From Escherichia phage Qbeta, in the sequence record AB971354.1: 4,217 nt of DNA. One strand, written 5' to 3'. How positions within the stretch are numbered: the stretch's first letter is position 1; the number at the start of each line of letters is the position of its first letter. The notes under the pieces were generated by a model. That model was not told where the DNA came from, did no database searches, and saw nothing but the letters and a program-made list of their open reading frames with translations. Both the position numbers and the translations under genes were made by a program. Positions 61 through 1,323 of the stretch are shown here, piece after piece.

Positions 61-1323
61 ATGCCTAAATTACCGCGTGGTCTGCGTTTCGGAGCCGATA
101 ATGAAATTCTTAATGATTTTCAGGAGCTCTGGTTTCCAGACCTCTTTATCGAATCTTCCGACACGCATCCGTGGTACACACTGAAGGGTCGTGTGTTGAA
201 CGCCCACCTTGATGATCGTCTACCTAATGTAGGCGGTCGCCAGGTAAGGCGCACTCCACATCGCGTCACCGTTCCGATTGCCTCTTCAGGCCTTCGTCCG
301 GTAACAACCGTTCAGTATGATCCCGCAGCACTATCGTTCTTATTGAACGCTCGTGTTGACTGGGATTTCGGTAATGGCGATAGTGCGAACCTTGTCATTA
401 ATGACTTTCTGTTTCGCACCTTTGCACCTAAGGAGTTTGATTTTTCGAACTCCTTAGTTCCTCGTTATACTCAGGCCTTCTCCGCGTTTAATGCCAAGTA
501 TGGCACTATGATCGGCGAAGGGCTCGAGACTATAAAATATCTCGGGCTTTTACTGCGCAGACTGCGTGAGGGTTACCGCGCTGTTAAGCGTGGCGATTTA
601 CGTGCTCTTCGTAGGGTTATCCAGTCCTACCATAATGGTAAGTGGAAACCGGCTACTGCTGGTAATCTCTGGCTTGAATTTCGTTATGGCCTTATGCCTC
701 TCTTTTATGACATCAGAGATGTCATGTTAGACTGGCAGAACCGTCATGATAAGATTCAACGCCTCCTTCGGTTTTCTGTTGGTCACGGCGAGGATTACGT
801 TGTCGAATTCGACAATCTGTACCCTGCCGTTGCTTACTTTAAACTGAAAGGGGAGATTACACTCGAACGCCGTCATCGTCATGGCATATCTTACGCTAAC
901 CGCGAAGGATATGCTGTTTTCGACAACGGTTCCCTTCGGCCTGTGTCCGATTGGAAGGAGCTTGCCACTGCATTCATCAATCCGCATGAAGTTGCTTGGG
1001 AGTTAACTCCCTACAGCTTCGTTGTTGATTGGTTCTTGAATGTTGGTGACATACTTGCTCAACAAGGTCAGCTATATCATAATATCGATATTGTAGACGG
1101 CTTTGACAGACGTGACATCCGGCTCAAATCTTTCACCATAAAAGGTGAACGAAATGGGCGGCCTGTTAACGTTTCTGCTAGCCTGTCTGCTGTCGATTTA
1201 TTTTACAGCCGACTCCATACGAGCAATCTTCCGTTCGCTACACTAGATCTTGATACCACCTTTAGTTCGTTTAAACACGTTCTTGATAGTATCTTTTTAT
1301 TAACCCAACGCGTAAAGCGTTGA
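61..1323 (+). CDS. A2: Maturation protein A2 (420 aa): pilus-binding virion protein that in Qbeta also causes host lysis by inhibiting MurA
   Basis: ORF 61..1323 with ATG at 61 and TGA at 1321-1323. The 420-aa product begins MPKLPRGLRFGADNEILNDFQELWFPDLF..., which I recognise as Qbeta A2. It is the first gene, as in all leviviruses. The lysis and MurA function is established knowledge, not visible in the sequence. Confidence 0.96.
   Translation: MPKLPRGLRFGADNEILNDFQELWFPDLFIESSDTHPWYTLKGRVLNAHLDDRLPNVGGRQVRRTPHRVTVPIASSGLRPVTTVQYDPAALSFLLNARVDWDFGNGDSANLVINDFLFRTFAPKEFDFSNSLVPRYTQAFSAFNAKYGTMIGEGLETIKYLGLLLRRLREGYRAVKRGDLRALRRVIQSYHNGKWKPATAGNLWLEFRYGLMPLFYDIRDVMLDWQNRHDKIQRLLRFSVGHGEDYVVEFDNLYPAVAYFKLKGEITLERRHRHGISYANREGYAVFDNGSLRPVSDWKELATAFINPHEVAWELTPYSFVVDWFLNVGDILAQQGQLYHNIDIVDGFDRRDIRLKSFTIKGERNGRPVNVSASLSAVDLFYSRLHTSNLPFATLDLDTTFSSFKHVLDSIFLLTQRVKR

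Follow-up and report, generated by a model that had tools for sequence, protein, structure and literature searches.

The open reading frame (ORF) at 61–1323 is almost certainly the A2 gene of phage Qβ, with one product that does two jobs, maturation and lysis, and with no need for a separate lysis gene of the MS2 L type. The dual role of A2, in which the protein attaches to the pilus and lyses the cell by blocking MurA, is already textbook knowledge. The original prediction had described a Qβ-type arrangement in which a dedicated lysis gene is absent and A2 lyses the host, and this is supported by the identity of A2 together with the literature. The reasoning behind it was narrower than its conclusion: the conclusion stands, but it was drawn from a single gene junction, which does not establish it alone.

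Identity of the genome and of A2

Judged from its sequence, the window (the whole stretch of DNA analysed here, 4,217 nucleotides of record AB971354.1) is the phage Qβ genome itself. Its positions 41–4200 show 100% nucleotide identity with AY099114.1 (phage Qβ), and it differs from other Qβ isolates by 0–8% of nucleotides. All four proteins of the window matched levivirus families in Pfam, those encoded downstream of A2 being Levi_coat, Read-through and RNA_replicase_B. The genes follow the Qubevirus order of mat, then coat with a leaky UGA and the read-through protein A1, and then replicase, and the GenBank annotation of AY099114.1 agrees with this map. An Rfam scan of the whole window returned no family at the gathering score.

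The ORF at 61–1323 runs uninterrupted for 420 codons from an ATG. Its translation is identical at 420 of 420 residues to the chain named 'Maturation protein A2' in PDB entries 5VLZ, 5VM7 and 7LHD (E 1.9e-292), and in tblastn it showed 100% identity with A2 of AY099114.1. Sequence, genome and position are all the same as those of Qβ A2, and the gene in the window is A2 itself rather than a relative. The protein also matched Pfam family PF03863 (Phage_mat-A; E 3.6e-135, 451.7 bits against a cut-off of 25) and PHROG 4286 (E 6.5e-142). The features discussed below are collected in Table 1.

Table 1. Positions in the window of A2, its lysis-related segments and the small ORFs and signals around the start of the replicase gene
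Feature	Position	Strand	Basis
Putative A2 Shine-Dalgarno sequence AAGAGGA, 3 nt upstream of ATG 61	51..57	+	Sequence reading; function suggested by the consensus
A2 gene; 420-aa protein for lysis and for maturation (binds pilus and RNA)	61..1323	+	ORF, PDB, Pfam, AY099114.1 annotation
A2 codons 1-180, shortest N-terminal fragment reported as lytic	61..600	+	Cui et al. 2017, cited at second hand
A2 codons 30-120, N-terminal beta-region with most of the reported MurA contacts	148..420	+	Computed from the published residue range 30-120, citing Cui et al. 2017
A2 codons 415-418 (T-Q-R-V), lysis lost or reduced when changed in an A2-only plasmid	1303..1314	+	PMC12856241, Tables 3 and 4
21-codon ATG ORF in the +2 frame, spanning the junction; hydrophilic	2294..2359	+	ORF list
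Five-stop cluster covering all three plus-strand frames	2331..2359	+	Sequence scan
A1-replicase intergenic junction, 18 nt, with the replicase Shine-Dalgarno sequence AAGGA (2338-2342)	2334..2351	+	Sequence
GAGGUUG shift site; GAG as replicase codon 24, with a +1-frame UUG	2421..2427	+	Single match in the window; published description
+1-frame part of the 67-aa cryptic product, 43 codons and stop	2425..2556	+	Reconstruction

In the relatives M11, MX1, SP and FI the genes come in the same order, the junction is about as long, and A2 has homologues of the Phage_mat-A family with 48–68% identity; those of M11 and FI are annotated as involved in lysis. Within the genus, A2 is least conserved at residues 30–120, with an identity of 48–53% in M11 and MX1 and of 30% (0.30) in SP and FI; owing to this low identity, MurA targeting by the proteins of these relatives cannot be assumed from sequence.

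Lysis by A2 and its proposed mechanism

That A2 lyses cells by itself, that MurA is its target and that the contacts lie in the N-terminal region are supported by the literature from which they derive. In primary data of 2026, a plasmid carrying only A2, with the same protein sequence as in the window, lysed E. coli to an OD ratio of 0.08, and lysis was abolished by truncation at R417, by V418K or by Q416P (PMC12856241). The C-terminus of the window protein, LLTQRVKR, agrees with the positions of these mutants. Reviews and the introductions of primary papers describe A2 as an inhibitor of MurA, and Qβ and SP as having no dedicated lysis gene; A2 is classed as a 'protein antibiotic' and a type I single-gene lysis protein (Sgl) with MurA as its target. 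Its structure has been solved for the free protein, within the virion and in complex with MurA, and PDB 5VM7, which carries the same A2 sequence, is listed as a cryo-EM complex of MurA and A2. Missense changes in MurA confer resistance on the host, and phage mutations that raise A2 production overcome it. The MurA mechanism is thus supported by secondary descriptions and by the name of the PDB entry.

In the maturation role, A2 is present as one copy in the capsid, where it holds the genomic RNA and binds the F-pilus; in the lysis role, it would bind closed, substrate-loaded MurA. MurA catalyses the first committed step of peptidoglycan precursor synthesis, and when it is blocked, cell-wall synthesis would halt and the growing cell would burst at the septum. 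We infer that the amount of A2 produced sets the timing of lysis. Qβ neither needs nor maintains a lysis gene of the MS2 L type. Its A1–replicase junction is closed in all three frames, and the remaining small plus-strand ORFs of the genome are by-products of U-rich third codon positions. The experiments on A2 lysis that were proposed along with the original prediction had reportedly been performed in 1983 and 2001. A2 is the founding 'protein antibiotic', a structural component of the virus that doubles as an inhibitor of an essential enzyme of the cell wall, and it is of interest both to phage biology and as a starting point for inhibitors of MurA; this was established between 1983 and 2017, and the window adds nothing new to it.

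The A1–replicase junction

The junction between A1 and replicase had been given as 18 nt (2334–2351), which is exact: the A1 stop is TAG at 2331–2333 and the replicase ATG begins at 2352. The accompanying claim that no alternative-frame plus-strand ORF spans it is literally wrong, because a 21-codon ATG ORF at 2294–2359 does so; a weaker form of the claim holds, namely that no ORF resembling MS2 L crosses the junction, as shown by the stops and by the hydrophilic nature of the crossing peptide. The stops TAG 2331, TAA 2334, TAA 2338, TGA 2344 and TAA 2357 lie within 29 nt and close all three frames, so that there is neither a long ORF from A1 into replicase nor an MS2-L-like gene at this place.

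In MS2, lysis is carried out by L, a protein of 75 aa (PF11125) encoded in the +1 frame across the end of the coat gene and the start of the replicase gene, and no lytic activity is described for its maturation protein. The same ORF scan applied to MS2 recovered L at 1678–1905. In Qβ, no start-initiated ORF of roughly 60–75 codons overlaps the end of the capsid gene and the start of replicase, the crossing ORF having only 21 codons. The +1 frame over the replicase start is open in Qβ too, but unlike MS2 L it lacks an ATG or GTG start as well as a hydrophobic domain, shows no detectable homology, and is cut off from A1 by stops in all three frames. An L-like hydrophobic C-terminal half was found neither in ORF 2294–2359 nor in the +1 frame at 2347–2556, the highest 17-residue Kyte-Doolittle mean (KD17) of both being below the 1.79 of L.

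Homology searches gave a consistent picture. Among the products of seven small Qβ ORFs, none matched PF11125 (Phage_MS2_lysis) at E ≤ 1, against 1.5e-40 for the MS2 L control, and a PHROG scan of the same seven products matched nothing. With MS2 L as the tblastn query against the whole window, no homologue was found, the best hit having an E of 0.21 and lying on the minus strand. Given that Pfam, PHROG and tblastn were all empty, an MS2-L homologue in Qβ is rejected. Residues 29–38 of L can be aligned with window positions 2353–2382 at 5 of 10 residues, which is not significant (E = 34) and apparently stems from the resemblance between the replicase N-termini of the two phages (MSKT...NSL). 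Levivirus lysis genes can be embedded at any genome position; an empty coat–replicase junction is therefore insufficient to deny a levivirus a lysis gene, and the whole genome needed to be examined.

A cryptic +1-frame ORF and A2-independent release

Two published results speak against A2 as the sole route of release. Cells carrying a Qβ cDNA with A2 deleted had capsids in the overnight medium (350 versus 866 µg/mL for wild type, about 40% of the protein yield), so that some A2-independent release exists, at least in that plasmid system. In addition, the A2-V418K phage still formed plaques, at 80% of wild-type PFU, though the V418K plasmid is non-lytic (PMC12856241). A candidate for such release is the 'cryptic' lysis gene of Qβ (Nishihara et al. 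2004, Genes Cells 9:877), which lies in the +1 frame at what is here 2421–2556; the 67-aa +1-frame product of the replicase start is reported to be lytic via a different mechanism. It could be a genuine second lysis function that acts late in normal infection, is reached by low-level ribosomal frameshifting or by initiation at UUG, and supplements A2, a reading that we consider quite unlikely.

The site and the product are present in the window exactly as in the published description, outside 61–1323: 24 replicase codons and 43 further codons give 67 aa, equal to the published size. The ORF also shares with MS2 L the +1 frame relative to replicase, and Kajitani et al. 2026 invoke it for capsid release without A2. 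The open stretch of the +1 frame comprises 69 codons and extends from within the junction, at 2347, as far as 2556. It has no ATG or GTG start, and its earliest possible starts are UUG 2419 and UUG 2425; the GAGG of the shift site adjoins the latter UUG with zero spacing and cannot serve as its Shine-Dalgarno sequence. The published cryptic ORF lies just downstream of the junction that the original prediction had called empty.

Conservation nevertheless argues against such a function. The heptamer GAGGUUG occurs in two of the ten Qubevirus genomes (Qβ and BR12), and the +1 ORF is interrupted in five of nine relatives (GIII_C, BZ1, BR12, MX1 and FI), the UUG being replaced by UAG in GIII_C; several of the interrupted relatives are plaque-forming isolates. 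Amino-acid changes number 5–12 of 44 in the +1 frame versus 1–7 of 44 in replicase, indicating no purifying selection on the cryptic ORF. Its product carries a net charge of +8, and the +1 frame at 2347–2556 reaches a maximum Kyte-Doolittle mean of 0.63, with no TMD-like segment. As a relative of MS2 L the 67-aa product was rejected, BLASTP between the two having given no alignment at E ≤ 100. Moreover, the title of Nishihara et al. 2004 itself calls the gene 'cryptic'. Being described as cryptic and being unconserved, the ORF does not overturn the interpretation that A2 is the lysis protein. It would be rather a long shot that ORF 2425–2556 aids A2-independent release in the laboratory Qβ lineage, as a recent, lineage-specific second lysis gene that arose de novo.

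Hydrophobic ORFs embedded in the known genes

Embedded in mat, A1 and rep are seven alternative-frame ORFs that have at least 25 codons and a maximum KD17 of 1.79 or more, the TMD criterion being scored by a Kyte-Doolittle proxy instead of TMHMM. In having such out-of-frame TMD-like ORFs of at least 25 codons, Qβ resembles the metagenomic leviviruses with embedded Sgls (Chamakura et al. 2020). The strongest candidates, at 1915–2169, 566–730 and 1145–1246, have maxima of 2.76, 2.31 and 2.09, and are thus more hydrophobic than MS2 L (1.79). The first, with 84 codons and an ATG start, lies inside the A1 read-through domain, and the other two lie inside the A2 gene. One of them, best 1915–2169, might accordingly be imagined as an unrecognised single-gene lysis protein that targets the membrane; we regard this as highly improbable.

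U-rich wobble positions yield abundant hydrophobic out-of-frame ORFs, so that such ORFs deserve serious attention only after a shuffle control and a test of conservation. In A1, 53% of third positions in 1914–2169 are U. Among 1000 synonymous-codon shuffles, 71% gave rise to an alternative-frame ORF with 84 codons or more, and 27% reached equal hydrophobicity; the length and hydrophobicity of the embedded ORFs are thus expected from the protein sequences and the U-rich wobble positions. Substitutions fall at the third positions of the known genes, and the alternative-frame peptides change 2–10 times more often than the known proteins. For 1915–2169, nearly all nucleotide differences alter the alternative-frame peptide; in BZ1 it differs at 25 of 85 positions versus 6 of 86 in the known protein. 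In all six Qβ-clade genomes this ORF is free of internal stops, with its start changed from ATG to ACG in HL4-9, but it is broken in M11, MX1, SP and FI, with two to three stops in M11 and MX1, and relatives disrupt all three strongest candidates by internal stops or by loss of the start codon.

Signals of expression or kinship were also missing from these candidates: the 18 nt preceding each hydrophobic candidate contain no GGAG, GAGG or AGGA, so the embedded ORFs fail the Shine-Dalgarno criterion of Chamakura et al. 2020, and none has a Pfam or PHROG match. According to the literature, some functional Sgls have no recognisable ribosome-binding site. With hydrophobicity and length at the level of chance in the shuffles, a freely evolving peptide and disruption in relatives, ORF 1915–2169 is rejected as a hidden membrane lysis protein. 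The pair of ORFs within A2 could be thought of as the lytic agents of A2 clones; A2 codons 415–418, at which changes abolish lysis, lie outside both 566–730 and 1145–1246, and together with the selection and conservation results this leads to their rejection. The embedded ORFs are noise, at chance level, unselected and unconserved.

The short ORF across the junction

The ORF at 2294–2359, which runs from ATG 2294 to TAA 2357–2359 and encodes MSYSSRDSRSSCLVTKDEMHV, is most likely not expressed, and the probability that its peptide has a function, for instance in regulation or in lysis, is practically negligible. Its first codon is ATG, and its frame is uninterrupted in the eight Qubevirus durum genomes and in FI; in MX1 the stop is lost. 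Its nucleotides are near-invariant in the Qβ clade (0–2 differences per 66 nt). The peptide, however, is hydrophilic (maximum KD17 of −0.82 versus 1.79 for MS2 L), no Shine-Dalgarno sequence precedes it and the Pfam and PHROG scans assigned it to no family; in M11 and MX1 it is changed at 8–9 of 22 positions, whereas A1 is changed at 1 of 14. The conservation of these nucleotides is attributable to what overlaps them, namely the A1 C-terminus, the ribosome-binding site and N-terminus of replicase, and the operator hairpin at the replicase start.

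Genome identity and gene organization

The window holds the Qβ genome in full (4217 nt). In a megablast search of GenBank phage records, it was 100.0% identical to AY099114.1 (Escherichia phage Qβ) across positions 41-4200 and 99.8% identical to GQ153931.1 across positions 3-4200. Gene positions deduced from the sequence coincide with those annotated in GenBank for the identical entry. The A2, coat, A1 and replicase products matched the Pfam families Phage_mat-A (3.6e-135), Levi_coat (1.5e-60), Read-through (8.3e-96) and RNA_replicase_B (3.6e-216), respectively. An Rfam scan of positions 1-4217 returned no family at its gathering score; Qβ RNA structures are well studied, including the operator, the S and M sites and the 3' domain.

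Genes and hydrophobic alternative-frame ORFs of the Qβ genome (KD17, 17-residue Kyte-Doolittle mean)
Feature	Position	Strand	Description
A2 gene	61-1323	+	420 aa; read from sequence
Coat gene	1344-1745	+	133 codons; UGA stop 1743-1745
A1 read-through	1344-2333	+	stops TAG 2331, TAA 2334
Replicase gene	2352-4121	+	589 aa
ORF	1915-2169	+	84 codons, ATG; max KD17 2.76; +1 frame in A1 read-through domain
ORF	566-730	+	54 codons, GTG; max KD17 2.31; inside A2
ORF	1145-1246	+	33 codons, GTG; max KD17 2.09; inside A2

Two public records deserve mention. NC_001890.1, the RefSeq 'Escherichia phage Qbeta', shares only 74.6% identity with the window and has the same length (4215 nt) and hit coordinates as the MX1 record AF059242.1; it appears to be MX1. 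In LC710219.1 (Qβ isolate GIII_C), the coat interval (1335-1736) carries the GenBank label 'lys: lysis protein A2', and the true A2 gene is named only 'mat', a mislabel that could propagate.

A2 as the lysis protein

Three PDB entries (5VLZ, 5VM7 and 7LHD) contain a 'Maturation protein A2' chain to which the 61-1323 product is identical at 420/420 residues, and residues 2-420 also match the 5MNT crystal structure (E 6.6e-292). In a structural review, 5VLZ is given as the mature virion and 5VM7 as the MurA-A2 complex. The literature consulted is mutually consistent: MurA binding by A2 promotes lysis, A2 is described as a moonlighting single-gene lysis protein (Sgl) that inhibits MurA non-competitively, and the form of MurA that it binds is the closed, UDP-GlcNAc-loaded one. 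As far as Cui 2017 is summarized by Kajitani et al. 2026, the MurA contacts lie mostly in A2 residues 30-120 and the shortest lytic fragment comprises residues 1-180. MurA missense changes confer host resistance, and A2-raising phage mutations overcome MurA-based resistance. With a lac-promoter plasmid carrying only A2, culture OD fell to 0.08 times the uninduced value, and this lysis was abolished by deletion back to R417 and by the substitutions V418K and Q416P (Kajitani et al. 2026, PMC12856241). The A2 C-terminus in the window, …LLTQRVKR, is the one numbered in that study. The experiments that the original prediction proposed have therefore already been done, with the predicted result. Its assignment of lysis to A2 is supported by the PDB identity, the MurA literature and the A2-only plasmid, and is already known textbook biology of Qβ.

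Across Qubevirus, A2 diverges most at residues 30-120 (window 148-420), where identity is 0.30 for SP and FI and 0.48-0.53 for M11 and MX1, compared with 0.48-0.73 elsewhere. This region probably also contacts the pilus, and MurA targeting by the A2 of M11, MX1, SP and FI cannot be read from sequence.

The A1-replicase junction

The A1-replicase spacer covers 2334-2351 (18 nt), as predicted. Stops at 2331, 2334, 2338, 2344 and 2357 shut all three frames within 29 nt, and the +1 frame relative to replicase is open from 2347, within the spacer, to 2556. An ORF like MS2 L cannot cross this junction. The predicted junction layout is partly confirmed: the coordinates and the spacer are correct, but the accompanying statement that no alternative-frame ORF spans the junction was wrong as worded, as a 21-codon ATG ORF at 2294-2359 (MSYSSRDSRSSCLVTKDEMHV) spans the entire spacer. 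Its peptide is hydrophilic (max KD17 -0.82) and had no match among Pfam or PHROG families, and no Shine-Dalgarno sequence was found upstream. The ORF is near-invariant in the Qβ clade (0-2 nt differences/66, genome-wide 4-8%) because of overlapping constraints from the A1 C-terminus, the replicase ribosome-binding site and N-terminus, and the hairpin at the replicase AUG. In M11 and MX1, its peptide is changed at 8-9/22 positions, versus 1/14 for A1. The 2294-2367 stretch, which includes the replicase Shine-Dalgarno sequence, the replicase start and the hairpin, has a fold z-score of -1.2, unremarkable taken alone. The hairpin itself (AUGCAUGUCUAAGACAGCAU, 2348-2367; 8-bp stem, bulged A, 3-nt loop) fits the known coat-protein operator; in Qβ, this hairpin is the translational operator bound by coat protein.

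Hydrophobic embedded ORFs and MS2 L homologues

Levivirus Sgl genes are out of frame and embedded nearly anywhere, mostly in rep, so that an empty junction is insufficient proof; all plus-strand alternative-frame ORFs were therefore scanned, with MS2 as the positive control. MS2 L (1678-1905) ranked top in hydrophobicity among the MS2 alternative-frame ORFs (max KD17 1.79), and seven Qβ alternative-frame ORFs with 25 codons or more reached or exceeded this value. Of 1000 shuffles preserving all protein sequences and codon usage, 71% contained an alternative-frame ORF with 84 codons or more, 27% attained a maximum hydrophobicity of at least 2.76, and 19% had seven or more hydrophobic ORFs. The cause lies in U-rich third codon positions: U makes up 36-43% of them in each of the three genes (61-4121) and 53% in 1914-2169. 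The +1 frame relative to each gene reads these positions as its second codon position, which specifies hydrophobic residues, and is therefore systematically hydrophobic, a general pitfall when lysis genes are predicted from TMDs in the Qβ genome.

Most substitutions in the Qβ clade sit at third positions within the known genes, and the alternative-frame peptides are altered by almost every substitution; against BZ1, 1915-2169 has 25/85 alternative-frame changes versus 6/86 in A1. This ORF lacks internal stops in all six Qβ-clade genomes, with ACG in place of its ATG in HL4-9; M11 and MX1 interrupt it with 2-3 stops, SP and FI with 1-3. The ORFs at 566-730 and 1145-1246 have lost starts or gained stops in M11, MX1, SP and FI, and the changes at A2 codons 415-418 that abolish A2-plasmid lysis (PMC12856241) lie at nt 1303-1314, outside both, which excludes either by experiment as the lytic agent of the A2 plasmid. 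No Shine-Dalgarno sequence was found upstream of the hydrophobic embedded ORFs. All three tabulated ORFs were rejected as lysis genes, being chance-level, unselected, unconserved and without a Shine-Dalgarno sequence, and we argue that the hydrophobic embedded ORFs are noise. Two published adaptive mutations (PMC12469967), A1930G and C2011A, fall within 1915-2169 and change the amino acid both in A1 (Q196R and T223N) and in the alternative frame (S6G and P33T).

In homology searches, the MS2 L control retrieved Pfam PF11125 (1.5e-40) and PHROG 8450 (2.9e-46); the Qβ small-ORF candidates had no Pfam or PHROG match at E <= 0.01, and the best tblastn hit of MS2 L to the window was on the minus strand (E = 0.21). 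The +1 frames of Qβ 2353-2382 and MS2 1762-1791 (CLRQHLRVTL / CRRQQRSSTL) agree at 5/10 positions, which is not significant and apparently follows from the resemblance between the replicase N-termini (MSKT...NSL).

Cryptic +1-frame product and A2-independent release

According to the account of Nishihara 2004 in Kajitani et al. 2026, a shift after the GAG of 5'-GAGGUUG-3' gives rise to a lytic product of 67 aa whose action is unlike that of A2. The window has a single copy of this heptamer (2421-2427), its GAG being replicase codon 24, and continuing at UUG 2425 as far as the stop at 2554-2556 makes a product of 24 + 43 = 67 aa (MSKTASSRNSLSAQLRRAANTRIE-LKVTSHFPLPTIYCWPMVSRHLTLRLSVFHSARDSTGPRMTLG), matching the published length. 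The product shares the frame of MS2 L, +1 relative to replicase, and showed no similarity to MS2 L; it is strongly basic (net charge +8) and lacks a hydrophobic segment (max KD17 0.63). GAGG directly adjoins the UUG and is not usable as its Shine-Dalgarno sequence, because no spacer lies between them. The published gene is intact in the window (2421-2556), and in most relatives it is broken or lacks the site. GAGGUUG is confined to Qβ and BR12 among the compared genomes; the position reads GAGGUCG in HL4-9, FrMerlot and BZ1, GUGGUUG in M11 and MX1, and GAGGUAG in GIII_C, where the UUG itself is a stop through a GUU-to-GUA difference that is synonymous for replicase. The frame is interrupted in GIII_C, BZ1, BR12, MX1 and FI, and +1-frame amino acid changes (5-12/44) exceed those in replicase (1-7/44). 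With its site patchy, its frame broken and its changes in excess, the ORF does not behave as a maintained gene, and 'cryptic' is therefore apt: it is a lineage-specific accident, lytic if expression is forced, and not a dedicated lysis gene.

Kajitani et al. 2026 found capsids in the overnight medium of A2-deleted cDNA cells (350 vs 866 ug/mL protein), and their A2-V418K mutant, non-lytic from the plasmid, yet gave 80% of wild-type PFU as phage; they propose virion-borne A2 or the cryptic product as the explanation. Non-specific cell death in the overnight JM109 cultures would be an obvious alternative. A true contribution of the cryptic ORF is very improbable.
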